Positions 1 through 54,170 of a DNA stretch of 64,000 nucleotides are shown one piece after another. A program made the position numbers and the translations under genes. Position 1 is the first letter of the stretch. The number at the start of each line of letters is the position of its first letter. This DNA comes from Cetorhinus maximus (lineage: Eukaryota), in assembly GCF_964194155.1 (NCBI RefSeq), contig NC_135888.1, positions 108,748,001-108,812,000 of the forward strand, written 5' to 3'. Under the pieces are notes generated by a model that was given only the letters and a program-made list of their open reading frames with translations, ran no database searches and was not told where the DNA came from.

Positions 1-218
1 CACACAAATCCATCACACATCCACAGGGATGGTGGCTGTTTTAAGGGACAATGCCACTAACTCTCACACATGCCATCAATCTCCATCAGGCTCAAATCCT
101 CTGGAGCTCGCGTCCTATCTTGCCTATGGCTCCACTCACCACACAAACATTCCATGCAGTGCCATGTGTCCTGCTCACTCTCTCTCCATTTGTTTCCATG
201 CAGGAGAAGCATGCTCAC

Positions 219-425
219 GGTCTGGAATGCGCTGCCTGGGAGGGTAGTGGAGGCGGGTTGCCTCACATCCTTTAAAAAGTACCTGGCACGTCATAACATT
301 CAAAGCTATGGGCCAAGTGCTGGTAAATGGGATTAGGTAGGTAGGTCAGGTGTTTCTCATGTGTCGGTGCAGGCTTGATGGGCCGAAGGGCCTCTTCTGC
401 ACTGTGTGATCCTGTGATTCAGTGA
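219..425 (+). mobile_element. CR1 LINE 3' end inserted into the Harbinger ORF2 exon
   Basis: WNALPGRVVEAG...FKKYL C-terminal motif followed by the tail ggccgaagggcctcttctgcactgtgtgatcctgtgattc. Confidence 0.75.
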
Positions 426-1149
426 TCAGCAGGGAGAGGTCCCAGACCGGGGGCAGAGTGGCCCACATTAGGTCCCTTACTCACTTTGAGGAGCGTGCCA
501 TCGTGCTGACTGGTGAGGACGTGGGCCATTCCTGCAGCGATGGTGAGGTCGGTGGCGAACACCCACGTGAGGACCCTACGCCACAACATCCCTCTCTCAA
601 CACAAATATGAATGCTCTCTCTCCTGCTTTTGGCTTTGCTGCCATGCACTACTTATTTCTACTTTGGCTCACAGGGAGCTCTGCCAAGCGACCAACACCC
701 TCAGCCAGCCAGTCCCTCAGCTCCATCCATGTCCTCATCTTCAGCCAAGGGGACACCTCGTCCATTGAAGAGCGAGAAATAAGCAGCCTGGAAGACCTGT
801 CACAGCACTTACCCACACCCTCCACCAGCACAGAGACACACACCTCGGTGGGACCTAGATCTAGAGCAGGCTCGGATTCACAACCTGGTGGTCACTTCAT
901 GGACATTTCTACACAGCAGGAGGCAGGTTCAGCCGATCTCCCCCGTACTTGAAGAACTGCTGGGGAAGAGGCATCTGTGGGGCCTGAGTCAGATGACGAA
1001 CCTCTGGGTTTGGTCTTCCAACTCATCCTGGAGAGTCATCAGAGGGCGGGTGAACATCTTGCAAGGCTGTTGGAAGTCCTCAACAGAATGGCTCATGAGT
1101 CATAGGAGTGCGTCCGCCTGCTCTCTGATGAAGTGGTGCCCACATGTGG

Positions 1150-2510
1150 ACCCTCGTGCAAGCACTCTCCCACGCACAGGGATCCTTCCCGTGTCACACT
1201 CACCTCAATGTCCTGAGCATTTTGAATGCTGTCTGCTGGGGTTCCTTTTCAGTTGCCCATCTGAGCTGACCTGCATCTCCGCCCATCCACTGATCACACT
1301 CCCATGCAGCACCTAACCTCACCCACCACGACTGTTGCTTCACTTTTGATTTGGACAGCGTGGTCTGGATTTGCTTTTTTGTCAGCTCCCATGTCCTTTA
1401 CCCTCCCCCAGTCACCCATTTCCTTTTCCCATCACAATTAAATCCCCTGGCATCACCTTTCACCTTCCATTCATGACCTACCAGCCCCAACCCTTTTGCT
1501 TCGGGGATGTCCTGGTCAATATGTTCCCTTCCTTCCCGAAAATCCCACCCACATCCACGTTCACCTCCCCGACCTCCTCCTTCCCACAACCAGGGTCCAC
1601 CTCTGCCTCTGAGTCCCTACCAACCACCCTCGCCATTCCTTCTACCACTACCGTCAAACCCTCATTCTCCCACCCTACCGCCTCACTCTGCCCTCGGTCA
1701 TTCTCACCATTCCCTCATACCACGCCCAACCACAGTTGTCTCCCCAGGAGGCAGTCATGGACTCTCCCTTGCACATTCACCTGGACATCCCCCCCTCCGG
1801 ACCCTTTCCCCTCCTGGAACACCTTCCTGACCACTTAGTCCTCCCAATCCCCCGGATTCTTCCCCTGCTTAGTCCCTCCCCCTTCCTGACTCCCTCAGAG
1901 ACACTTACTTCTTCACCACCCTTGGTCCTTCCACCCCCCTTGACTCCTTCCTCCAGCCCTACCTCTTCCTCCAGCTTTACTCCTTCCTCCTCCCTGACTC
2001 CCTCAGACACCCTCGCTTCTTCCTCCAGTTTTACTCCTTCTCCCTTCCTGGCTCCTTCCTCCATCCTTACTTCTTCCTCCTCCCTTACTCTCTCCCCTCT
2101 CTGCACTCCTTCCTCCCCAGGACTCCCTTCAGTTTCCGCTCTCCTTCCTTCCCCTAGACTCTCTCCCTTCTCTGCACTCCTTCTTCCCCCTGGAATCCCT
2201 CCCCTCTCTGCACTCCTTCTTCCCCCTGGATTCCTTCCCCTCTCTGCACTCCTTCCTGCCTCCGAACTCCTTCCCTTTAACCATCGACCCCCCTTACATC
2301 TACCTCCCCAATTGCCATCTTCTCCCCCGTTACCCCTCCTCCCCATATTCCCTCCCTCTTTCCCAACCTCACCGCCGACACCTTCATTTCCCCCTCCCAG
2401 TCCCACCCCACCAACACCTTCATTGCCCCCTCCAACCTCACCCCTCTGACACATCTTCATCTCCCAGTCGATCCTGGACCTTCCCCTTCCAGCCCCTTTG
2501 ACCATTATCC
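1150..2510. repeat. C/T-rich low-complexity tract with diverged 18-bp and 33-bp tandem units
   Basis: Six-residue periodicity on the minus strand (VREEEE VRMEEG ARKGEG VKLEEE ARVSEG VREEEG) and repeated ctctgcactccttcttccccctgga units at about 2165-2250. Confidence 0.7.
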
Positions 2511-3204
2511 ATTGTGAGCATCAACAGTGACTTTCTAACTTCTGTGAGCTGCTTCACAGCAGAGCCATGTCCAAGAGAATCCACCCAGCATGCCATGGCC
2601 GCTCCTCCAGTGTGCCATTGCTGTCAGGCTCCAGCATTTTCTGCTCCTCGGATGTCCGCGATGTGAGCAACGTCCTGGCGGTAAGACCTGGCTTCTGCAT
2701 GTCACAGTTGTCAAGACATGTTCTGTACCGATGTGTTTTCCCACCGACGTGGGTGGATGATCCAGCGGGGGGGGTGATGAGTCCAGAGGACTGGCCTCAT
2801 AGTGAAATGCTGATGTTGCCGATATATTACAACGAGGTTCCCGACATCTGATGGCAGGGAACGCGTCCCACCATCGACAAGCTGAGCGGACGATTGCAAA
2901 CTGGTTTCATGACATTGCAAAACTGATTTTTGGCCTTCTCGCCGTGTTGTCTACTCACGCCACCGAACATGCCCGACGCCAGCGGGCACGGACAATTCCG
3001 CCCACTATGTACAACTTAGCAATAGCAATTATTTTAAACTCATTGAAAAAAACATTAAACTTCCAGCAATTAAGAAAACCTTGAATTCAAACTTACTATC
3101 ATTAATACAGGGCCAAAAAAAACCCAAGGGAAAAAACCATTTAAATGCCTATTAGATTTGTAAACAAACAAGAAACTGCATCACAGACATGTTCTGGCAT
3201 TATA

Positions 3205-6200
3205 TTCCAACACAGCAGCTGCTGGAATTTAAATTCAATTAATAAATCTGGAATTAAAAGTTAGTCTCAGTAATAGTGACCATGAAACCATTGTCGTTAA
3301 AAACCCATCTTGCTCACGAATGTTCTTTAGGGAAGGAAATCTGCCATCCTCAGTGGTCTGGCCCACATGTAACTCCAGACCCACAGCAATGTGGTTGACT
3401 CTTAACTACCCTCTGAAATGGCCTAGCAAGCCACTAAGTAGTACCAAACGGTTACAAGGTCGAAAAGGGATGAAACCAGGCAGACCACCTGATATCGACA
3501 TTGTCATTGGAAACAACAACGGCACACCCAGCCGTGTCAACCCTACAAAGTCCTCCATTCTAACATCTGGGGGCTTGTGTCAAAATTGGGAGACCTGTCC
3601 CACAGGCTAGCCAAGCACTCACGGAATCATACCTTACAGACAGTGTCCCAGACACCAATGTCCCTGGGTGTGTCTTGTCCCACCGACAGGACAGATCCAC
3701 CAGAGTGGCAGAATACTGGTATACAGTCAGGAGAGAATTCCTCTGGGAGTCCTCAACATTGAACCTGAACCCCATGAAGGATCATGGCATCAGGTCAGAC
3801 ATGGACAAGGAAACCTCCTGTTGGTTACCACCTATCACCCACCCTCAGCTGATGAATCAGTACTCCTCCATGTTGAATACCAATTGGAAGAAGCACTGAG
3901 GGTGGCTAGGGCAGAGGGTACTCTGGGTGGAGGATTTCAATGTCCATCACGAAGAGTGGACCGATAGTACCACTACTGACCGAGCAGGCCAAGTCCTAAA
4001 GAACATAGCTGCTCGACTGGGTCTACAACAGGTGGTGACGGAACCAATAAGGGGGAAATACCTACTTGACCTTGCCCTCATCAATCTACTCTACCTGTCG
4101 CAGATGCATATGTCCATGACAATATTGGTTGGAGTGATCACTGCACAGTCATTGCAGAGATGAAGGCCTGTCTCCACTTTGAGGATACCCTCCATCGTGT
4201 TGTGTGGCATCACCACCGTGCTAAATGGGATAGGTTTCGAACAGATCTAGCAAAACTGGGTGTCAATGAGGTGTTGGGGCCATCAGCAACAGCAGAATTA
4301 CACACAACCACAATCTGTAACTGCACAGCCGGCATATCCCCCGCTCTACAATACCATCAAGCTGAGGGATCAACCCTGGTTCAATGAAGAGTGCAAAGGA
4401 GGGCATGCCAGGAGAAGCACCAGGCATAACTAAAAATGACATGTCAATTTGGTGAAGCTACAACACAGGACTATTTGCATGACAAATAGCAATAGATAGA
4501 CGGAGGGATTCTACAACCAATGGATCAGATCTAAGCTCTGCAGTCATGCCACACCCAGTTGTGAATGGTGGTGGACAATTAAACAGCTCACTGGAGGAGG
4601 AGGCTCCACAAATATCCCCATCCTCAATGATGGTGGAGCCCAGCACATCAGTGCAAAAAACAAGGCTGAAACATTAGCAACCATCTTCAGCCAGAAGTGT
4701 CAACTGGATGATCTATCTCAACCTCCTCCTGAGGTCCTCAGCATCACAGATGCCAGTCTTCAGCCAATTTGATTCACTCAACCATATCAAAAAATGTCTG
4801 AAGACACTGGATACTGCAAAGGACATGGGCCCTGATAACATTCTGAGAATAGTAATGCAGACTTGTGTTCGAGAATTAGCTGCACCCCTAGTCAAGCTGT
4901 TCCAGTACAGGTACAAACTGGCATCTACCCAATAATATGGAAAATTGCCCATGTATGTCCTGTCCACAAAAAGCAGAACAAATCCAACCCGACCAATTAC
5001 CGCCCCATCAGTCTACCCTCAATCATCAGTGAAGTGATGGAAGGTGCCGTCGTCAGTGCTATCCAGTGGCATTTACTCAGCAATAACCTGCTCATTCTCA
5101 GAGTGGGTTCCGCCGGTGCTACTCAACTCCTGACCTTATTACAGCTTAGGTCCAAACATGGACAAAAGATCTGAACTCCAGAGGTGAGGTGAGAGTGACT
5201 GCCCTTGACATCAAGGCCGGATTTGACCAAATGTGGCATCAAAGAGCTCTAGCAAAACCGGAGTCAATGGAAATCAGGGGGAAAACTCTCTGCTCGCTGG
5301 AGTCATACCTGGCACAAAGGAAGATGGTTGTGGTTGTTGGAAGTCAATCACCTCAGTCCAGGACATCATTGCAGGAGGTCCTCAGGGTAGTGTCCTTGGC
5401 CCAACCATCTTCTGCTGCTTCATCTATGACCTTCCTTCCATCATAAGGTCAGAAATGGGAATGTTCACTGATGATTGCACAACAGTCAGCACCATTTGCA
5501 ACTTCTCAGATACTGAAGCAGTGCATGAACAAAGGCAGCAAAACCTGGACAAAATCTAGGTTTGGGCTGACAAGTGGCAAGTAACATTTGTACCACACAA
5601 GTGCCAGGCAATGACCATCTCCAACAAGAGAGAATCCAACCATCTCCCCTTGACACTCAATGGGATTACCATCAATGAATTGCCTACTATCGACATCCTG
5701 GGGCTCGTCATTGACCAGAAGCTCAATTGGACCAGTCATATAAATACTGTGGCTACAAGAGCTGGTCAAAGGCTGGGAATTCTGCAGCGAGTAACTCACC
5801 TCCTGACTCTCCAAATCCTGTGTACCATCTCCAAGGCACAAACAGTGTGATGGAACGCTCTCTATTTTCCTGGATGAGTGCAGATCCAATAACACTCAAG
5901 AAGCTCAATGCCATCCAGGATAAAACAGCCCGCTTGATTGGTACTCCATCCACTACCTTAAACATTTACTCCCTCCACCACAGACGCACAGTGGCAGCAG
6001 TGTGTATCATCTACAAGATGCGCTGCAGGAACTTATCAAGGCGTCTTCAACAGCACTTTCCAAACCTGTGACTTCTACCACGTAGCAGGGAAAGGTCAGC
6101 AAACGCATGGGAACATCACCTGCAAGTTTCCCTCCAAGCCACTCAACATCCTGCGTTTGAAATATATTGCCGTCCCTTCATTGTCACTGGGTCAAAATCC

Positions 6201-6359
6201 TGGAACGCCCTTCCTACCAGCATGGTGGGTGTACCTACACCACATAGGCTGCAGCAGTTCAAGAAGGCAGCTCACCACCCCTTCTCAAGGGCAATTAGGG
6301 ATGGGCAATAAATGCTGGCCTAGCTAGCGATACCCACGTCCCATGTGGGAGTAAAAAAA
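3205..6359 (+). mobile_element. Near full-length decayed non-LTR retrotransposon (APE + RT, CR1/L2 group); head partly truncated
   Basis: Frameshifted APE motifs (GDFNVHH, LLDLAL) and RT motifs (NYRPISL, ALDIKAGFDQMWH, GPQGSVLGP, FTDD). 3' tail gggcaattagggatgggcaataaatgctggcc...aaaaaaa. Confidence 0.9.
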
Positions 6360-16900: not shown

Positions 16901-19776
16901 CATTTTTTAAATTTATGCTTTCACAGGATGTGGCTGCCACTGGCTAGGCCAGCATTTATTGCCCATCCCTAACTGCCCTGAGAAGGTGGTGGTGAGCTGC
17001 CTTCTTGAACTGCTGCAGACCATGTGGTGCAGGTGCACCCACAGAGCTGTGAGGAAGGAAGTTCCAGAATTTTCATGCAGTGATAGCGAAGGAACGGCAA
17101 TATAGTTCCAAGTAAAAATGTTGTATGGCTTGGAAGTGAACTTACAGGTGGTGCTGTCCTTGTCTTTCTAGGTGGTAGAGGTCATGAGTTTGGAAGGTGG
17201 TGTCAAAGGAGCCTTGGTGAGTTGCTGTTGTGCAACTTGTGGGTAGGGCACATTGCAGCCACTGTGCATCAAAGGTGGAGGGAGTGAATCTTTAAGATGG
17301 TGGATGGGCTGCCAATCAAGCAGGGTCCTTTGTCCTGGATGATGTCAAGCTTCTTGAGTGTTGTTGGAGTTGCACTCATCCAGGCAAGTGGAAAGTATTC
17401 CATCACACTCCTGACTTGTGCCTTGTAGGTGGTGGGCAGGCTTTGGGGAGTCAGGAGGTGAGTTACTCGCCGCAGGATTCCTGACCTCTGACCTGTTCTT
17501 GTAGCCACAATATTTATATCACTGGTTAAGTTCAGTTTCTGGTCAATGGTAGCCACCCTCCCGCCCGGTTGTTAATAGTGGAGAATTCAGCAGTGGTAAT
17601 GCCATTGAATGTTAAGGCGGGATGGTTAGATTCTCTCATTGGAGATGGTCATTGCCTGGCATTTGTGTGGTGCAAATGTTATTTCCCACTTATCAGGCCA
17701 AGCCTGAATGTTGTCCAGATCTTGCTGCATTTAGACACGAACAGCTTTAGTATCTGAGGATTTGCGAATGGTGCTGAACATTGTGCAATTACCAGCAAAC
17801 ACCCCCACTTCTGACCTCATGATGGAGAGAAGGACACTGCTGAAGCAGCTAAAGATGGTTGGGTCTTGGACACTACCCTGAGGTACTCCTGCACCAATGT
17901 CCTGGGACTGAGATGATTCACCTCCAACAACCACGATCATCTTCCTTTGTGCTAGGTAGGACTCCAACCAATGGAGAACTTTCCCCCTGATTCCCATTGA
18001 CTTCAGTTTTGCTAGGGCTCCTTGATGCCACATTCTGTCAAATGCTGTCTTGATGTCAAGGGCAGTCATTCGGACCTCACCTCTGGAGTTTAGCTCTTTT
18101 GTCCATGCTTGGACCAAGGCTGTAATGAGGTCAGGAGCTGAGTGGCTCTGATGGAAACCAAACTGAGCATCAGTGAGCAAGTTGTTGCTGAGTAAGTGCC
18201 ACTTGATAGTACTGTCGACGACACCTTCCATCACTTTGCTGATGATTGAGAGTAGACTGATAGAGCGGTAATTGGTTGGGTTCAAATTGTCCTTTTTGTG
18301 TACAGGATATACCTGGGCAATTTTCCTCATAGCCGGGTAGATGCCAGTGTTGTAGCTGCACTGGAACAGCTTGCCTAGGGGCGTGGCAAGTTCTGGAGCA
18401 TGTCTTCAGTGTTATTGCTGGGAATATTGTCAGGGCCCATAGCCTTTGCAGTATCCAGTGCCTTCAGCCATTTCTTGATATCGTGTGGAGTTAATCGAAT
18501 TGGCAGAAGACTGGTATCTGTGATGCCAGGAATCTCAGGAGGAAGCCAACATGGATCATCCAGTTGGTACTTCTGGCTGAAGATTATTGCAAATGCTTCA
18601 GCCTTGTCTTTTGCACTGATATGCTGGACTCCCCCATCATCGAGGATGGGAATATTTGTGGAGCCTCCTCTTCCAATGAGTTGTTTAATTGTTCACCGCC
18701 ATTCATGACTGAATGTGGCAAGACTGCAGATGTTGTTGCTTGTGGGCTCGCTTAGCTCTATCACAAGCTGCTTCTGCTGTTTGGCATGTGTTGTAGCTTC
18801 ACCAGGTTGACACCTCATTTTTAGGTATGCCTGGTGTTGCTCCGGGCGTGCCCTCCTGCACTCTTAATTGAACCAGGGTTGATCCTCCGGCTTGATGGTA
18901 ATGGTAGAGTTGAGAATATGCTGGGTTATGAGATTACAGTTTGTGGTTTTATACAATCCTGTTGCTGCTGATGGCCCACAGCGCCTCACGGATGCCCAGT
19001 TTTGAGTTGCTAGATCTGTTTGAAATCGATCCCATTTAGCATGGTGGTAGCGGCACACAACATGATGGAGGGTATCCTCAATGTGCAGATGGGACTTCAT
19101 CTCCACAAGTACTGTGTGGTGGTCACTCCACCAATACCGTCACGGACAGATGCATCTGTGACAGGTAGATCGGTGAGGGGGATATCAAGCAAGTTTTTCC
19201 CTCTTGTTGGTTCCCTCACTGGCTGTTGAAGACCCAGTTTAGCAGCTATGTCCTTTAGGACTCGACCAGCTCGGTCAGCAGTGGTGTTACTGAGCCACTC
19301 TTGGTGATGGACATTGTAGTCCATTGTACCAGGGTTGATCTCCTGGCTTGATGGCAATGGTAGAGTGGGAGATATGCAGGGCCATGAGGCTACAGATTGT
19401 GTTTGAATACAGTTTTGCTGCTGCTGGTGGCCCACAGTGCTTCATGGATGCCCAGTTTTGAGTTGCTAGGTCTGTTCTGAATCTATCCCATTTAGCTTGA
19501 TGGCAGTGCCACACAACACAGTGGAGGGTATTCTCAATGTGAAGATAGGACTTTGTCTCCGCAAGAGCTGTCTGGTGGCCATTGTACAGATTCATCTCCG
19601 AAAGGTGGATTAGTGAGGACAAGGCCAAGTAGATTTTTCCCCCTTGCTGGTTCCTTCACTACTTGCCACAGAGCCAGGCTAGCAGCCATGTCCTTTTGGA
19701 CTCAGCCAACTGTCTCAGTACTACTGCTACTGAGCCACTCTTGGTGATGGACATTGAAGTCTCCAACCCAGAGTAC

Positions 19777-20157
19777 TTTTTTTTTATTAGTTCATGGGAT
19801 GTGTCACTGGCTATACCAGCATTTATTGCCTATCCTTAATTGCCCTTGTTCAGGGGGTATTTAAGAGTCAACCACATTGCTGTGGGTCTGGAGTCACAGG
19901 TAGGCTGAGCTAGACCAGGTAAGGATGGCAGATTTCCTTCCCTAAAGGGCATTAGTGAACCAGATGTATTTTTACGACAATCGGCAATGGTTTCATGGTC
20001 ATCATTAGACTTTTAATTCCATATTTTTATTGAATTCAAATTTTAACCATGTGCCATGGTGGGATTCAAACACAGGTCCCCAGAGCATTACCGTGGGTCT
20101 CTAGAATACTAGTCAGTGACAGTGACAGTGACAGTACCGCAATGCCACCGCCTCCCC
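19777..20157 (-). mobile_element. tRNA-derived SINE (~380 bp): LINE head plus LINE 3' tail, nested in a LINE copy
   Basis: Minus strand reads ggggaggcggtggcattgcggta...gactagtattctag...gtttgaatcc (A/B-box-like), body, then gggcaattaaggataggcaataaatgctgg...aaaaaaaaa. It splits the host LINE at gagtac|att. Confidence 0.8.
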
Positions 20158-20431: not shown

Positions 20432-21102
20432 CAGTCAATATCCTGGGAGTTACCATTGACCAAAAATTAACTGGACATCCATATAAATACTGTGGCTAGA
20501 AGAGCAGGTCAGATTTTAAGAATCTTGTGGTGAGTAACTCACCTCCTGACTCCCCAAAGCCTGTCCACCATCTACAAGGTGCAAGTCAGGAGTGTGATGG
20601 AATACTCTCCACTTGCCTGGATGAGTGCAGCTCCAACAATACTCAAGAAGCTTGACATCATCCAGGACAAAGCAGCCCACTTGATTGGCACCCCATCCAC
20701 AGACATTCATTCCCTTCACCACCGATGCATAGTGGCAGCAGTGTGTACCATCTACAAGATGTACTGCAGGAACTCACCAAGCCTCCTTAGAAAACACCTT
20801 CCAGATCTATGACAGCTACCATCTAGACGGACAAGGGCAGCAGTCACATGAGAACACCACCACCTGGAAGTTCCCCTCCAAGCCACTCACCATCCTGGCT
20901 TGGAAATGCATCGCCATTCCTTCATTGTTGCTGGGGCAAAACCCTAGAACACCCTCTCTAACAGCACTGTGGGTATGCCTATACCACATGGACTGCAACG
21001 GTTCAAGAAGGCAGCTCATCACCATCTTCTCAAGGCAATTAGGGATGGGCAATAAATGCTGGCCTAGCCAACGATGTTGACATCCCATGAATGAATTTTA
21101 AG
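20432..21102 (+). mobile_element. 5'-truncated LINE 3' fragment inserted into the head of the minus-strand LINE
   Basis: QVRSVMEYSPLAWMSAAPTILKKLDIIQDKAAHLIG followed by the family tail. The host head sequence stops at 20431 and resumes at about 21103. Confidence 0.85.
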
Positions 21103-21468
21103 AAGTTACATGTAGGCTAGACCAAGTAAGGATGACAGATTTCTTTCCATAAAGGACTTTAGTGAGCCAGATGGGTTTTTACAACAATTGACAACGATTT
21201 CACGTCCACCATTACTAAGACTAGCTATTAATTCCAGCTGCTGTGGTGGAGTTTGAACCCGTGGTCCCAGAGCATTAGCCTAGGCCTCTGTACTGCTAGG
21301 TCAGTACATTACCAGTATGCCACTGCCTGCCCCTATGTTGCCAGGGAGACTATTTGAGACTAATCCAAAAGGCCAGTCAGTATATTATCCTTGTTATTAA
21401 TGTGGTGCATATCTAGTTGTAAAAATCTCAGCCACATTTTAAGTTCCCCTCATGCTGGTTATAATACT

Positions 21469-40139: not shown

Positions 40140-40435
40140 AGAAAGACTTGCATTTATATTACACCTTACACGACCTTGGCATGTCCCAAAGCACTTTACA
40201 GTCAATTAAATGGATCTTTGAAATGTAGTCACAATTCTAATGTAAGAACCATGGCAGCCAATTTGTGCCACAACCAGCAATGTAATAATAACCAGATTTT
40301 CTTTTGGATGTTTTTTTGACAAATAACTATTGGCCAGGTTTGCTGCTTTGCTGCTCTTCTTTGAAATAGTGCCACAGGGTCTTATATGTCCACCCAGAGG
40401 GCAGACTTGACTTAATATCTCATCCGAAAGATGCT
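40140..40435 (-). mobile_element. DeuSINE (SacSINE1-like), 5'-truncated
   Basis: Deu-domain-like core homologous to 13520-13855, plus an L2-like tail (tataaatgcaagtctttc on the minus strand). Confidence 0.7.
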
Positions 40436-40456
40436 TATTGGTACCACAAATACTAA

Positions 40457-41045
40457 GGTGGTGTAGTGATATTGTCACTGGACTGGTAATCCAGAGACCC
40501 AGGGTAATGCGCCGGGGACCCAGGTTTCAATCCACCACGGTGGTGGAATTTGAATTCAATAAAATCTGGAATTAAAAGTCCAATGATAACCATGAAATCT
40601 TTGTCGGTTGTCATTAAAATCCATCTGATTCACTAAATGCCCTTTAGGTATGGAAATCTGTCGTCCTCACCTGATTTGGTTGATGTGTGTATGACAACAG
40701 ATCCACAGCCATGTGGTTGACTCTGAAATGGCCTAGTAAGCCACTCAGTTGTATCTAACGGCTAGAAAGCTAATAGAAAGGAATGAAACCAGACAGACCA
40801 CCTGGCTCTGACCTACCAACCAGAAACGACAATGGCAAATCCAGCCCCATCAACCCCGCAAAGTCCTCCTTACTAACATCTGGGGGGTTAGTGCCAAAAT
40901 TGGGAGAACAGTCTCACAGACTAGTCAAGCAACAGCCTAACATAGTTATCCTCACGGAATTATACCTTAAAAATCATGTCCCAGACACAACCATCATCAT
41001 GTATGCCCTGTCCTGCCAGCAGGACAGAAGTGGTGTACAGACAGG
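40457..41045 (+). mobile_element. 5' end of the LINE family: tRNA-like head followed directly by the APE N-terminus
   Basis: A-box-like TGGTGTAGTGA at 40459, stem-loop CTGGA-CTGGTAA-TCCAG, B-box-like GGTTTCAATCC at 40523, then LVPKLGEQSHRLVKQQPNIVILTELYL. Confidence 0.8.
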
Positions 41046-41048
41046 AGG

Positions 41049-42160
41049 GCATTTATTGTCCATCCCTAGTTGTCCTTGAGAAAGTGGTGGTGAGCTGCCT
41101 TCTTGAAGCCGCTGCAGTCCATGTGGTGTAGGTACACCCACAGTGCTGTTAGGAAGGGAGTTCCATGATTTTGACCCAGTGACAAGTGAAGGAACGGCAA
41201 TATATTTCCAAGTCAGGATGGTGAGTGACTTGGAGGGGAACTTCCAGGTGGTGGTGTTCCAGGTGCTGTTGTTGTCCTTCTAGATAGTAGTGGTCATTGG
41301 TTTGGAAGGTGCTGTCTAAGGAACCTTAGTGAATTCCTGCAGTGCATCTTGTAGATAGTACACACTGCTGCTACTGTGCGACGGTGGTGGAGGGAGTGAA
41401 TGTTTGTGGATGTGGTGCCAATCAAGCGGCTACTTTGTCCTAGACAGTGTCAACTTCTAGATTGTTGTGGGAGCTGCACTCATCCAGGCAAGTGGAGAGT
41501 ATTCCATCACACTCCTGACTTGTGCCTTGTAGATGGTGGACAGGCTTTGGAGAGTCAGGAGGTGAGTTATTCGTTGCAGGGTTCCTAGTCTCTGACCTGG
41601 TCTTCTAACACAGTATTTATATGGCTAGTCCAGTTTAGTTTCTGGTCAGTGGATGTTGATGGTGCGGGATTCAGTGATGGTAATGCCATTGAAAGTCAAG
41701 GGGTGATGGTTAGATTCTCTCTTGTTGGAGATGGTCATTGTCTGGCAGTGCGTGACGCAAATGTTACTTGCCACTTGTCAGCCCAAGCCTGGATATTGTA
41801 CAGGTCTTGTTGAATTTGGATATGGACTGCTTCAGTATCTGAGGAGACGCGAATGGTGCTCACTTGGGCAATCATCAGCAAACATCCCCACTTCTGACTA
41901 TATGATGGATGCAAGGTCATTGATGAAGCAGCTGAAGACGGTTGGGCCAAGGATACTACCCTGAGGAACTCCTACAGTGATGTCCTGGAGCTGAGATGAC
42001 TGACCTCCAACAACCACAACCATCTTCCTTTGTGCTACGTATGACATCAAGCAGCGGAGAGTTTTCCCCCTGACTCCCATTGACTCCAGCTTTGCTAGGG
42101 CTCCTTGATGCCACACTAGGTCAAATGTGGCCCTGATGCCAACGGCAGTCACTCTCACCT
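41049..42160 (-). mobile_element. Inverted LINE 3' half (RT C-terminus and tail)
   Basis: RVTAVGIRATFDLVWHQGALAKLESMG...GVPQGSILGPTVFSCFINDL. Confidence 0.85.
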
Positions 42161-42314
42161 CACTGCAACCATCTTCATCCAGAAGTGCACAGTGGATGAT
42201 TTATCTCTGCCTCCCCCGAGACCCTTACCATCATAAGTGCCAGTCTAAAAGCAATTCAGTTCATCCCACATGTCAAGAAATGGCTGAATATATTGGATAC
42301 AGCAAAGGCTATGG

Positions 42315-43046: not shown

Positions 43047-44281
43047 ATGGGGACTGTGCTCTCCACTGGAGGCACCTCCTCTGAGGAGGAAGAGAGGGCC
43101 AGAAGTGGGGGGAGGCCAGGTGTCCTAATGCATCCTCCAGGGGAGCCCCCTGTGGGAGGACAGACGTAGGCACAAGGGGCACAGGGCCAACAGGAAGTCC
43201 AAGGTGGAAGGGGCCGCAGAAGTCGCCACTTTCCTCCTGCCAGGGTTTACAGGAGGCGATGCAGCTACCTCAATATGTCTGAGGTTCAATGCCGAAGGAA
43301 GCTCCGCATCTCAAGGGAGACTGTGACCTCCAGCTGTCAGATGATTGGCCCTGAGATCAGCTCCAACTGTGTTGGTGGACGCCCCAGGCCAGTGGCGCTG
43401 AAGGTCACGGTGGCCCTCCACTTCTATGCCTCAAGCGCTTTCCAAGGGTCGGTGGGGGATCTTTGTGGAGTCTCCCAAGCAGTTGTCCACAGTTGTGTCA
43501 AGCTGGTGACAGATGCTCTGTTCAGGTGTGCATTGACTTTTATTCACTACCGCACGGACGAGGTCAGCCAGGCAGAGCGAGCCAGAAGCTTTGCTGCGAT
43601 TGCTGGATTCCCCCACGTCTAGGGTGCCATCGACTGCACACATGTGGCCATCAAGGCGCCAGCGGGTGAGCCCGGTGCCTTCACTAACAGGAAGGGCTTC
43701 CACTCCATGAACGTGCAGATAGTGTGTGACCATAGGATGCAGATTCTGCAAATCTGTGCAAGATACCCAGACAGCTCCCATGACGCTTACAGCCTGAGAT
43801 ACTCCCAGGTGCCGAGGCTCTTCAGTACTCTAGCCCGGCTAGATGGATGGCTGCTGGGTGACAAGGGCTATCCCCGCAAAATGTGGCTCATGACGTCTCT
43901 CCGCCATCCAAGAATAGAGGCTGAGCAGCGGTACAACAGGAGCCACACCTCCACAAGGGCGGTGGTAGAGAGGACCATCGGTCTTCTCAAGATGCACTTC
44001 CAATGCCTGGACCGCTCAGGGGTGCACTGCAATACCCCCCAGATTGTGTGATACTGATAGTGGTTGCATGCTGCGCTCTCCACAATCTGGTGTTGGAAAG
44101 GGGGGACGCTGTGGAGCAAGAAGATGTTGACACAGCTGCTCTGGCAGCAGATGATGAGTCCAATAGTGAGTCCAAGGATGAGCACACTCAGGGGAACTCT
44201 GAGGGGATAGACGCTGACCTGGGCAACCTCCAGGGAGGCAGGGATACCCGGGAGGCTTTGATCCAATGCTCCTTCAGCTAA
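43047..44281 (+). pseudogene. Harbinger (HARBI1-like) DDE transposase, disrupted
   Basis: GAIDCTHVAI, FTNRKGFHSMNVQIVCD, SSHDAY, WLLGDKGYP, YNRSHTSTRAVVERTIGLLKMHFQCLDRS, ACCALHN. TAG stops at 43167 and 43620 and a frameshift near 44020. Confidence 0.92.
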
Positions 44282-49680: not shown

Positions 49681-52600
49681 GGCCGCAAAATTTGACTGTG
49701 TAGCACTGCTAGTTTTGGCTTTATGGGAACTTGGGGATGAACAAAATGTCAGGGGTGCGCTCCTAACAACATCCGGCACAACCCACGCCTATTGCCATGT
49801 TAGGAAGGGAGTTAGCATAGGCATCCCATGTGTGGACCAGGTGCATGTAGAGTGGGTAATTCCTGCCATCAATCAGCATCTAATCCTGATTTGGCACCAA
49901 GCCTGCACTTTTGGCCTTACAGGTCCTGTTAATGGCCATCCTTAAACACACACACAGCTGAACATGCATTCAGCTGTTTGAGGATCTCCTCTAATACCCC
50001 TGCAATGCAACTTTCAGATGAGGTGCTTTTGACTTTCTTTTGGTGCTGCAGAGTTAGTGGAAGTACTATGTACTGTGTTGTTGGAGGAGTTCACACAAGT
50101 CCTTTCAGCCAAAAGAGAGTGCTGCTAGATCGACTGGTATAGATTTGAAAGGATTCTGAGCAGAAAACTTGCTCCTGATTATGGGGTTATAGTTGCAGTC
50201 CATCTTGGGTTGCATGTGGCAGGGAGATTGAGCAGAGATAGCAGAGATGAGTAGCTGTGCACAAAAGGAAGAGGAGAAGGACTCTCAACAGAAAGCCTTA
50301 CCCACCTAGCGTCTTCAGTGAGCACATCCTCTACCTCCACCTCAGACAGGCATCTGTGATGGCTACACTTCACCAAGGAGGTAGTCACTGAACTATGTCA
50401 CCTCCTACAATTGACCTGCATTTGTAGAACTGAGTGAGAACAGCTCTGCCCAAGGCCATCAAGCTCACCATGCTCTGTAATTTCTATGCCAGTGGCTCCT
50501 TCCAGGTTAGGGCTGGCAACCTCACCAACATTTCCCAGTTCACCATGCATCACTACATGCAGGAGACCCAGGGTAATGCTCTAGATACCTGGGTTTGAAT
50601 CTCACCATGGCAGGCGGTGAAATTTGAATTCAATAAAATCTGGAATTAAAAGTCTAACAATGACCATGAAACCATTGTCGATTGTTGTAAAACCCATCTG
50701 GTTCACTAATGTCCTGTTGGGAAGGAAATCTGCGTCCTCACCTTCTCTGGCCTACATGTGACTCCAGATCCGAGTAATGAGGTTGACTCTTGAATACCCT
50801 CTGAAATGGCCTAGTATGCCACTCAGTTATATGCAACCACTAAAAAACCAATAAAAAGGAATGAAACCAGGCGGACCACCTGGCATCAATCTACTCACCG
50901 GAAACAACAACGACAAACTCAGCCCTGTTGACCCTGCAAAGTCCTCCTTACTGGGGGCTTGTGCCAAAATTGGGAGAGCTGTCTCACAGACTAGTCAAGC
51001 AACAGCCTTCAGTATCATGCCTTAAAGATCATGTCCCAGGCACCACCATTACCAAACCTGGGTATGTTCTGTCCCATCGGCAGGACTCCTCCAACAACAC
51101 AGTACATAGTACTTCCACTAACTCTGCAGCACTAAAAGAAAGTCAAAAGCACCTCATCTGAAAGTTGCATTGCAGGGGTATTAGAGGAGACCCTCAAACA
51201 GCTGAATGCATGTTCAGCTGTGTGTGTTTAAGGATGGCCATTAACAGGACCTGTAAGGCCAAAAGTGCAGGCTCGGTGCCAAATCAGGATTAGATGCTGA
51301 GGTGGCAGCACAGTAGTGTACAGTCGGGAGTGAGTTACCATGGGAGTCCTCAACATTGACTCTGGCTCCCATGAAGTCTCATGGCATCAGTTCAAACTCC
51401 TGCTGATTACCAGTACCGCCCCACCTTAGCTGATGAATCAGTGCTCCTCCATGTTGAACACAACTTGAAGGAAGCACTGAGGATGGCAAGGGCGCAGAAC
51501 ATGCTCTGGGTGACGAAGTTCAATATCCATCACCAAGAGTGGCTCAGTAGCACCACCACACACCGAGCTGGCCGAGTCCTAAAGGGCATAGCTGCTAGAC
51601 TGGGTCTGCGGCAGGTGGTGAGGGAACCAACAAGAGGGAAAAACACACTTGACCTCATCCTCACCAACCTGCCTGTCCCAGGTGCATCTGTCCATGACAG
51701 TATCGGTAGGAGTGGCTATCGCACAGTCCTTGTGGAGACAAAGTCCCATCTTCACATTAAGGATACCCTCCATTATGTTATGTGGTGCTACCACCGTGCT
51801 AAATGGGATAGATTTTGAACAGATCTAGCAGCTCAAGACTGGGCATCCATGAGGCGCTGTGGGTCATGATCAGCAGCAGAATTGTACTTGAACACAATCT
51901 GTAACCTCATGGCCTGGCATATCCCCCACTCTACCATTACCATCAAGCCAGGGGTCAACCCTGGTTCAATGAAGAGTGCAGGAGGGCATGCCAGGAGCAG
52001 CACCAGGCATACCTAAAAATGAGGTGTCAACCTGGTAAAGCTACAACACAGGACAACTTGCATGCCAAACAGTATAAGCAGCAAGTGATGGACAGAGCTA
52101 AGCGATTCCCCAATGAACAGATCAGATCTAAGTTCTGCAGCGCTGCCACATCCAGATGTGAGTGGTGGTGGACAATTAAACAACACACTGTAGGAGGAGG
52201 CTCCACAAATGTCCCCATTATCAATGATGGAGGAGCCCAGAATATCAGTGCAAAAGAAAAGGCTTGCAGCATTCACAACAATCTTCGTCAGAAGTGCCAA
52301 GTGGATGATCCATCTCAGCCTTCTCCCAAGGTCACTGGCATCACAGATGCCAGTCTTCAGCCAATTCAATTCACTCCACGTGATATCAAGAAACGGCAGT
52401 AGGCACTGGATACTGCATAGGCTATGGGCACTGACAATATTCCAGCTAAAGTACTGAAGACTTGTGCCCTAGAATTTGCCACGCCCCTAGCCAAGCTGTT
52501 CAGTTCTGCATCAACCCGGCAATGTGGAAAATTGCCCAGGTATGCGCTGTACACAAAAAGCAGGACACATCCAACCTGGCCAATTACTGCCCCATCAGGC

Positions 52601-54170
52601 TGCTCTCTGTCATCAGTAAAATGATGGAACGGGTCATTAACAATGCTATCAAGCAGCACTTGCTTAGCAATAGCCTGCTCACTGGTGTTCAGTTTGGGTT
52701 CTGCCAGGGTCAGTCAGCTTCTGACCTCATTACAGCCTTACTTCAAACATGGACAAAAGAGCTGAACTCCATAGGTGAGGTGAGAGTGACTGCCCTTGAC
52801 ATCAAGGCAGCATTTGACAGAGTGTGGCATCAAGGAGCCCTAGCAAAACTGGAGTCAATGGGAATCAGAGGGAAAGCTCTCTGCTGGCTGGAGTCATACC
52901 TAGCACAAAGGAAGATGGTTGTGGTTGTTGGAGGTCAATCATCTCAGTTCCAGGACATCACTGCAGGGGTTCCTCAGGATAGTGTCCTAGGCCAAACAAT
53001 CTTCAGCTGCTTCATCAATGACCTTCCTTCCATCATAAGATTAGAAGTGGGGATGCTTGCTGATGATTGTTCAATGCTCAGCACCATATACAACTCCTCA
53101 GATACTGAAGCAGTCCATGTCCAAATATAGCAAGACCTGGACAATATCCAGGCTTGGGCTAACAAGTGGCAAGTAACATTCGCGTCACACAAGTGCCAGG
53201 CAATGACCATCTCCAACAAGAAAGAATCTAAACGTCACCCCTTGGCATCCAATGGCATCACCATTGCTGAATCCTCTACTATCAACATCCTGAGGATTGC
53301 CATTGACCAGAAACTGAACTGGACTAGCCAGATAAATACTGTGGCTACAGGAGCAGGTCAGAGGCTAGGAATCCTGAGACAAATGACTCACCTCATGACT
53401 CCCCAAAACCTGTCCACCATCTACAAGGCACAAGTCAGGAGTGTGATGGAATATTCTCCACTTGCCTGGATGAGTACAGCTCCAACAATGCTTAAGAACC
53501 TTACACCATCCAGGACAAAGCAGCCCACTTGATTGGTAGCACTTCCACAAGCATTCACTCCCCCCACCACCGACAAACAGTGGCAGCAGTGTGTACCATC
53601 CACAAGATGCACTGCAGAAACTCACCAAGGCTCCTTAGACAGCATCTTCCAAACCCACGACCACTACCATCTAGATGGACAGGGGCAGCAGATAAATGGA
53701 AACACCGCCACCTGGAAGTTCCCCTCCAGGCCACTCACCATCCTGACTTGGAAATATATCGCCTATCACTGGGTCAAAATCCTGGAACTCCCTCTCTAAC
53801 GATACTGTGGGTGTACCTACACTACATTGACTACAGCGGTTCAAGAAGGGAGCTCACCACCACCTTCTCATGGGCAATTAGGGATGAGCAATGAATTCTG
53901 GCCTAGCCAACGATGCCCACATCCCGTGGATGAATTTTAAAAATTCACTGAGGCTCTGTATTCAAGGAGATGGGACTGCATGCTTGTGGTTTTCAGATGC
54001 CACATCTCAATGGGGAGATGTATTGGAAGCACAAACAGTTCCACTCCCTGAATTCGCAGTTGGTATGCGACCACACACAAACCATGTTGATGAATGCCTA
54101 CTATGTCAGATCAAGCGATAGTGCTTGTTTCTCAGATGTGCATTGTTTTTCCCACTCTTCACCGTAAAGC
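49681..54170 (+). mobile_element. Older Harbinger relic split by a LINE
   Basis: LHFTKEVVTELCHLL...IKLTMLCNFYASGSFQVRAGNLTNISQFTMHHYMQE before 50565, resuming as TEALYSRR at about 53946. Confidence 0.65.
50561..53943 (+). mobile_element. Near full-length APE+RT LINE with partial tRNA-like head (best-preserved copy)
   Basis: Head gagacccagggtaatgct...gggtttgaatctc, APE ORF 51381-51818, RT ORF 52462-53130 (GVPQDSVLG, ADD), family tail at 53872-53943. Confidence 0.92.

Follow-up and report, generated by a model that had tools for sequence, protein, structure and literature searches.

We present an analysis of the non-coding head that opens a LINE copy at position 40457 of a 64-kb window (the whole stretch of DNA analysed) and of the family to which that copy belongs. 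The copy is a Zenon, and its tRNA-Ser-like head is probably the internal Pol III promoter of a 3.29-kb LINE with a single ORF, as a tRNA-like head combined with an avoidance of T runs makes a Pol III reading likely, in the manner of SINEs. Conventionally, LINEs are coding elements transcribed by Pol II and SINEs are non-coding elements transcribed by Pol III. It can further be proposed, tentatively and at somewhat less than an even chance, that elasmobranch Zenon behaves as an autonomous SINE, transcribed by Pol III over 3.3 kb from a tRNA-Ser-derived promoter, recoded against T-runs, translated without cap or in-frame AUG, and spawning SINE families by internal deletion.

The 40457 copy lies on the plus strand and comprises 600 bp from the 5' end of a 3.29-kb single-ORF LINE, now decayed. 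Its tRNA-derived head (40457..40541; element positions about 9-95, with the first G-run lost), the majority form of which aligns to the tRNA-Ser(GCT) of locus L213, contains an A box at 40459..40469 reading TGGTGTAGTG / TGGTGTAGTGA (family majority TGGCGTAGTGG), an anticodon-like stem-loop CTGGA-CTGGTAA-TCCAG at 40478..40494, a long variable-arm (extra) hairpin at 40498..40517 and a B box at 40523..40533 that reads GGTTTCAATCC (GGTTCGAATCC / GGTTCAAATCC in the family). Among the motifs claimed for this head in the first-pass annotation, the A box, the stem-loop and the B box are in place but the extra hairpin is degraded, and the B box quoted there, GGTTTGAATC, is that of the copy at 50592 instead. 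The head is followed by a non-coding body common to the LINE and its short derivatives (40542..40750; positions about 96-315), by a LINE-specific linker with an Arg-rich lead-in (40751..40868), where an overlapping uORF of 36-46 codons starts from an out-of-frame AUG at 40783, and by the decayed start of the endonuclease (LLTN...ILTE, 40869..41028; LLTN codons at 40869, ILTE at 40948), the copy breaking at position 598. The LLTN codons lie 412 bp downstream of the head start, in agreement with the earlier estimate of about 400 bp and no room for an ORF1.

The window is C10:108748001-108812000 of a 4.0-Gb genome. A majority sequence built from 20 loci of this genome measures 3,291 nt and consists of the head (1-95), the non-coding body (to 315) and one frame between stops at 299 and 3227. 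This single frame of 975 codons encodes an endonuclease and a reverse transcriptase and contains two internal stops, both located at CpGs, of which one is reverted when more copies are included; it is preceded by about 300 nt of non-coding sequence without an ORF1 and followed by a 3' UTR of about 65 nt and an A-rich tail, majority and copies alike finishing in GAATGAAT-A(n). Pfam searches with single-copy pieces gave Exo_endo_phos_2 and RVT_1 over the cut-off, with matches in four of the five pieces. The family makes up 8.2% of 40 blind 10-kb stretches of the genome and is absent from 13 of them. The nearest distant reverse transcriptase matches are 26-39% identical, and the named ones belong to lepidopterans. 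A search for full-length homologous proteins returned one chimeric gene model only.

By its sequence, the element is identified as elasmobranch Zenon (CR1 group), which was catalogued in 2026 (PMC13343379); the available part of that paper reports Zenon in sharks and rays, describes all Zenon elements as lacking ORF1 and ending in a poly-A tail, and states that they are not deposited in repeat databases. A 16-mer of the element is present in 5 rows of its supplement, and over the first 400 nt the elasmobranch consensuses given there are near identical by eye to the element, head included. CarCar_Zenon-1, RhiTyp_Zenon-1, HypSab_Zenon-1, ScyCan_Zenon-1 and SquAca_Zenon-1 measure 3,244-3,314 nt against 3,291 here, and the elasmobranch Zenons, SquAca_Zenon-1 to -3 among them, share the single ORF and the A-tail (PMC13343379). 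The A and B boxes are kept by eye in five published elasmobranch consensuses, the variable arm being lost in HypSab, while the hagfish and coelacanth Zenons listed in the same source have no such head in their first 400 nt and do contain T4+ runs. The absence of ORF1 noticed in the first-pass annotation is therefore borne out but is not unusual, being a known trait of Zenon. Whether the arrangement had already been catalogued can be answered in part: the element with its head is in PMC13343379, but the head is not recognised there, the word "tRNA" occurring 0 times in the available text and supplement and "polymerase III" not occurring in the text. Nor are T-run avoidance, the missing AUG or short derivatives of elasmobranch Zenon described in what is available of that paper. 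The literature searched did not describe any Zenon as tRNA-headed or as transcribed by Pol III, and Repbase, Dfam or subscription journals may already record the head. Thus, the element and its missing ORF1 are already known, and what seems not to have been described is its tRNA head together with the avoidance of T-runs.

A tRNA derivation of the head, with its A and B boxes, is supported by sequence comparison. The A-box consensus is TRGCNNAGYGG, and the two boxes of the head stand at tRNA spacing. With default settings, ARAGORN found no tRNA in the 64-kb window, and an Rfam search of the window and of one good head matched no tRNA either; at other loci, individual heads do pass as tRNAs in default ARAGORN, and at a relaxed threshold all four subfamily majority heads were called as long-variable-arm tRNAs whose anticodon reads AGT or GGT. 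When compared with genuine tRNAs of ten types from this genome, a set in which Thr(AGT), Gln and Leu genes are not included, the head matches best to tRNA-Ser(GCT), itself a long-arm tRNA (score 72, z 10.5 against shuffles). The tRNA similarity claimed earlier stands on the Ser(GCT) match and the relaxed calls, against a negative Rfam result. A tRNA-Thr origin, which the first-pass annotation had favoured, was rejected, as the scores for Ser(GCT) (66.5/72.0) and Ser(AGA) (57/58.5) exceed those for Thr(TGT) (51/50), and the "Thr" of the head is best read as a drifted anticodon. Across 98 heads the 5' edge is sharp: the majority fraction is 0.32-0.43 upstream versus 0.65-0.76 over the first G-run, and conservation sets in abruptly where an AT-rich flank gives way to this G-run, which precedes the A box by 10 nt.

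A scan of the sense strand for T4+ Pol III terminators, already suggested in the first-pass annotation, found 0 in the 3,291-nt majority, which has 15 A4, 11 C4 and 8 G4 runs. In the ORF, 4 T3 runs were counted versus 13.0 +/- 2.6 expected from 5,000 synonymous shuffles, 0 of which were as low (observed/expected 0.31), while A, C and G runs match expectation; this shuffle test rests on the majority sequence. The 0 T4 runs of the ORF versus 2.2 expected (P 0.07) are not significant alone against codon shuffles, and near-terminators of the forms TTTVT/TVTTT number 0 versus 4.1 expected (P 0.01). Eight stop-free single-copy pieces point in the same direction, with summed counts of 3 T4 runs versus 10.5 and 31 T3 runs versus 39.7, one of the eight being individually significant. 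Nine other LINE stretches of the same genome have 32 T4 runs in 3,177 codons when summed and T3 ratios of 0.79-1.02, although one of these controls, of 295 codons, is likewise T4-free; L049a (frameshifted) and L050 and L120 (redundant with L118) were excluded from these LINE-stretch and single-copy sums. The more distant controls were 67 non-redundant ORFs of at least 400 aa from 80 metagenome loci with related reverse transcriptases, after 6 loci had been set aside as redundant and 7 for want of a usable 400-aa ORF. T4 runs occur in 67/67 of them, with a median T3 ratio of 0.99 and a lowest of 0.74; these controls are mostly T-richer (1/67 as low), are 22-41% identical and are not established as Zenon members. 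None of the 80 distant ORFs was seen to be preceded by a head with A and B boxes, though many of the contigs may lack the 5' end. Phe accounts for 18 of the 975 codons (1.8%) as against 3.0-7.4% in the 67 distant ORFs, and across the aligned part it is higher in 36 of 41 distant homologues. The scarcity of T3 and absence of T4 runs fits selection against Pol III terminators. The dinucleotides TT (80 versus 99) and TA (99 versus 117) are low too, so a broader bias may contribute to the scarcity of T runs.

The mechanism envisaged would begin in a shark/ray ancestor with a template switch onto tRNA-Ser, or onto a tRNA-headed RNA, yielding a headed LINE. Transcription by Pol III would then begin at the 5' G-run, continue through the entire element, which is free of T-runs, and end in a genomic T-tract downstream; the resulting RNA would be copied by target-primed reverse transcription. 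Its uncapped RNA would have to be translated without an in-frame AUG, by a non-AUG start or by re-initiation or frameshifting from the overlapping uORF. An uncapped Pol III RNA of 3.3 kb is a poor mRNA. The first in-frame AUG of the majority ORF lies at 540, beyond LLTN (431) and ILTES (512), and none precedes the endonuclease, while an out-of-frame AUG at 348 opens the overlapping uORF, which is of variable length. As a conserved peptide this uORF was rejected, for its stop varies and 40 of 108 copies differ at 454. There is also an in-frame AUG-GCC-UAG at 293-301; amber read-through from it into the ORF, or a UUG start at 314, is weakened by an in-frame TAA at 317-319 in 23 of 109 copies and, by eye, in SquAca_Zenon-1 as published. 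The linker falls into length classes of 30 (62/89) and 27 (12/89), which would suggest a conserved frame, but it measures 28-32 by eye in the published consensuses.

The difficulty of explaining how a Pol III RNA is translated lends weight to an alternative that is unlikely but a serious contender, in which the head represents a 5' UTR acquired by capture, and Pol II produces the LINE RNA, either from an element internal to the body or by read-through; the boxes would persist since the short derivatives need them or exchange them with the LINE, and the T-poor strand would have some other cause. LINEs are established as Pol II transcripts (PMC10886601 and PMC5786205, as far as these are available), the A-rich tail is present, and the generally low TT and TA would suit this alternative. 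It is countered by a T3 depletion that goes beyond the 67 distant and nine local controls with A, C and G runs normal, by a 5' edge at the expected start of a type 2 Pol III promoter, by the maintenance of the boxes in five species, as judged from the published consensuses, and by the short forms having no ORF, so that selection on them cannot shape that of the LINE. Contigs from four runs (guessed to be RNA) cover head and ORF, but such contigs cannot show start, strand or level. Should the Pol III promoter reading be true, a major vertebrate LINE would carry a tRNA promoter across sharks and rays, with Pol III stops purged from a 2.9-kb frame, which would break the textbook LINE/SINE split and make it testable whether translation of a Pol III RNA suffices for retrotransposition.

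Two abundant short forms of 370-400 nt join head and body to the LINE tail at junctions 315/3216 and 292/3217; only these derivatives are short and non-coding as SINEs are, the LINE itself being 3.29 kb and protein-coding. The heads are of two types, O and Y, both of which are found on the LINE as well as on a short form, and the tail states follow the type. Over head and body, LINE-Y and SINE-Y differ at 8 of 292 sites and LINE-O and SINE-O at 9 of 302, while cross pairs (O versus Y) differ at 15-26 sites plus 10 gap bases. In a tree of 48 heads (12 per group, drawn from 51, 27, 16 and 12, the O and Y groups being defined from the same heads), O separates from Y with LINE and SINE heads mixed on both sides (SH-aLRT 97). 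Further junctions are seen in older short copies, in some of which linker bases peculiar to the LINE adjoin the tail at varied points. The short forms thus look like repeated internal deletions of the LINE that track its subfamilies. Under the proposed mechanism, such deletions, retaining promoter and tail, would have produced ready-made SINEs, apparently several times, and a SINE could be born in one step when the middle of a headed LINE is deleted.

Rather unlikely is the reverse order, though compatible with the use of Pol III, in which a tRNA-headed SINE with a Zenon tail came first, the LINE acquired its 5' 315 nt, and later exchange of the body keeps the heads alike. The abundance of the short forms, whose exact junction 20-mers number 5,282 and 5,649 versus 2,762 for the LINE junction, would suit this order, as would the frequent module exchange among SINEs (described in the available part of PMC5499810) and an AU test that, at p 0.07, stops short of formally rejecting monophyly of the short forms. 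It accommodates less readily the several distinct junctions, some containing LINE-only linker bases, and the agreement of the younger short form with the younger LINE in head and tail, and it has against it the documented repeated internal deletion of an insect Zenon (Persaeus, PMC6740152, as available). Capture of a ready-made SINE by the LINE, which the first-pass annotation had considered, accordingly fits less well than its reverse, for the short forms resemble LINE deletion products; with the insect Zenon as precedent, it is simpler to read the short forms as repeated deletions of the LINE.

According to the available part of PMC6740152, the Persaeus SIDEs from lepidopteran Zenon likewise arose by repeated internal deletions that keep the 5' UTR and the 3' end, but they neither show homology to tRNA nor carry a Pol III promoter, whereas the deletion products here are tRNA-headed and therefore look like ordinary SINEs. 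RTE-1_DAn and related elements are also autonomous LINEs with a tRNA-like sequence, one that matches many SINE2 families; they belong to the RTE clade and receive, in what is available of PMC5786205, a passing mention with no analysis of position, promoter or terminator. Bov-tA, CoeSINE4 and SINE2_Gav have the same order of head, LINE 5' part and LINE 3' part, but in them the head was added to a deleted LINE, while here the full-length coding LINE is already headed; the same partly available paper (PMC5786205), in its list of clades from which SINE bodies derive, does not include the CR1 group. SacSINE1 / DeuSINE of sharks is a tRNA-headed SINE of similar size with an L2-type tail (PMC5499810, PMC4824008, both in part); its Deu domain is unlike the body here by eye, the SacSINE1 sequence itself not being part of that comparison. 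A SacSINE1/Deu identity of the body was dropped since the Deu alignment is unlike it by eye; no resemblance by eye was found to the Deu, Meta or UCON3 domains, and a check for four short Deu motifs found none of them.

The head is the element's own 5' end, and head and LINE move together. With an internal endonuclease query, 19 of 29 other loci extend to the tRNA head, and the remaining 10 break at scattered positions (188-649) with unrelated DNA upstream; none of these 29 has a different 5' UTR, an arrangement that would speak against a single unit. An exact 20-mer spanning the junction of body and ORF (linker) occurs 2,762 times genome-wide, a lower bound on the number of LINE copies, versus 0 for the reversed control; the earlier views that head and LINE are one unit, and that their recurrence exceeds chance adjacency, can both be upheld on a junction fixed in thousands of copies. 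Target-site duplications could not delimit the unit, since none are detectable: among 31 complete copies, one has matching 7-nt flanks, versus 0.8 expected. Short or absent target-site duplications are usual in the CR1 group. Chance adjacency, or insertion of the LINE at a fixed site within SINE copies, might be entertained given the dense nested repeats of the window, but is almost certainly wrong in view of the single fixed junction in thousands of copies, the co-variation of head type with ORF subfamily, full-length copies without a second tail, and blind-sample 3' fragments without a head+body block at their break.

Four LINE copies of the window had been reported to share one head. All are one family, but the A box and the anticodon arm are present only in 40457+ and 21331-. 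The copy at 3204..6359 (plus; positions 82-3290), almost full-length and of the older head subfamily, lacks both because it starts at element position 82, the tRNA head being largely missing, and the copy at 50563..53943 (plus) lacks them because it runs from position 46 to the 3' A-tail; the latter is split by a 210-bp insertion at 51087-51295. The 21331- copy, of the older type with full head and body, occupies 21104..21331 (minus; positions 2-249), resumes at 20437-20165 and 19779-19322, and reaches the endonuclease only across a 660-bp inverted insertion plus a deletion. Inserted into its body is an inverted 3' LINE fragment at 20435..21096 (plus; positions 2619-3283), and nested in the LINE copy is a short head+body+tail derivative of the younger type and the 292/3217 junction class at 19778..20156 (minus), the fifth head of the window. 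LINE body and 3' end, with the reverse transcriptase domain, follow at 16912..19322 (minus; positions 838-3286). Beyond the 40457 copy lie a younger 3' fragment of the same LINE in opposite orientation at 41049..42163 (minus; positions 2112-3246, 91%) and an internal remnant at 42164..42314 (plus; positions 1597-1751, 77%), likely the 40457 copy continued.

Other repeats were observed around these copies. Directly upstream of the 40457 head and opposite in orientation, 40150-40440 (minus) contains a decayed SINE fragment, Deu-like by eye with an L2-type tail, which we presume to be SacSINE1-like. A decayed PIF/Harbinger-type transposase lies at 43270-44280 (plus; DDE_Tnp_4 match at 43623-44018, 4e-27), and a fragment similar to it by eye is found near 50330-50560. 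An inverted duplication of 228 bp (49863-50090 / 51085-51308; 96.5% identical) flanks the 5' part of the 50563 copy, includes a few LINE bases and points to a local inversion or rearrangement of recent date.

Larger internal deletions are frequent in the family (L034, L038; also L031, L049, L184, L187), and L034 and L038 resume at an identical position, hinting at an amplified deleted subfamily. Pieces of the ORF are fused into annotated shark gene models (protein matches P0001, P0024 and P0032; zinc-finger and exoribonuclease entries), likely as annotation chimeras or exonisation. Of practical consequence, with the family at about 8% of the sampled genome, is the mis-calling of its heads as tRNA genes: default ARAGORN calls fall on family heads as Thr-AGT or Ser-ACT (L046:5104-5178, L080:2244-2336, L231:931-1013), and such heads may inflate the high shark tRNA counts reported in the available part of bioRxiv 10.1101/2025.06.08.657570. 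Within L121-L150, tRNA genes stand in dense tandem clusters (C36, C26 and C11 of this genome), with decayed 3' LINE fragments between some of them.
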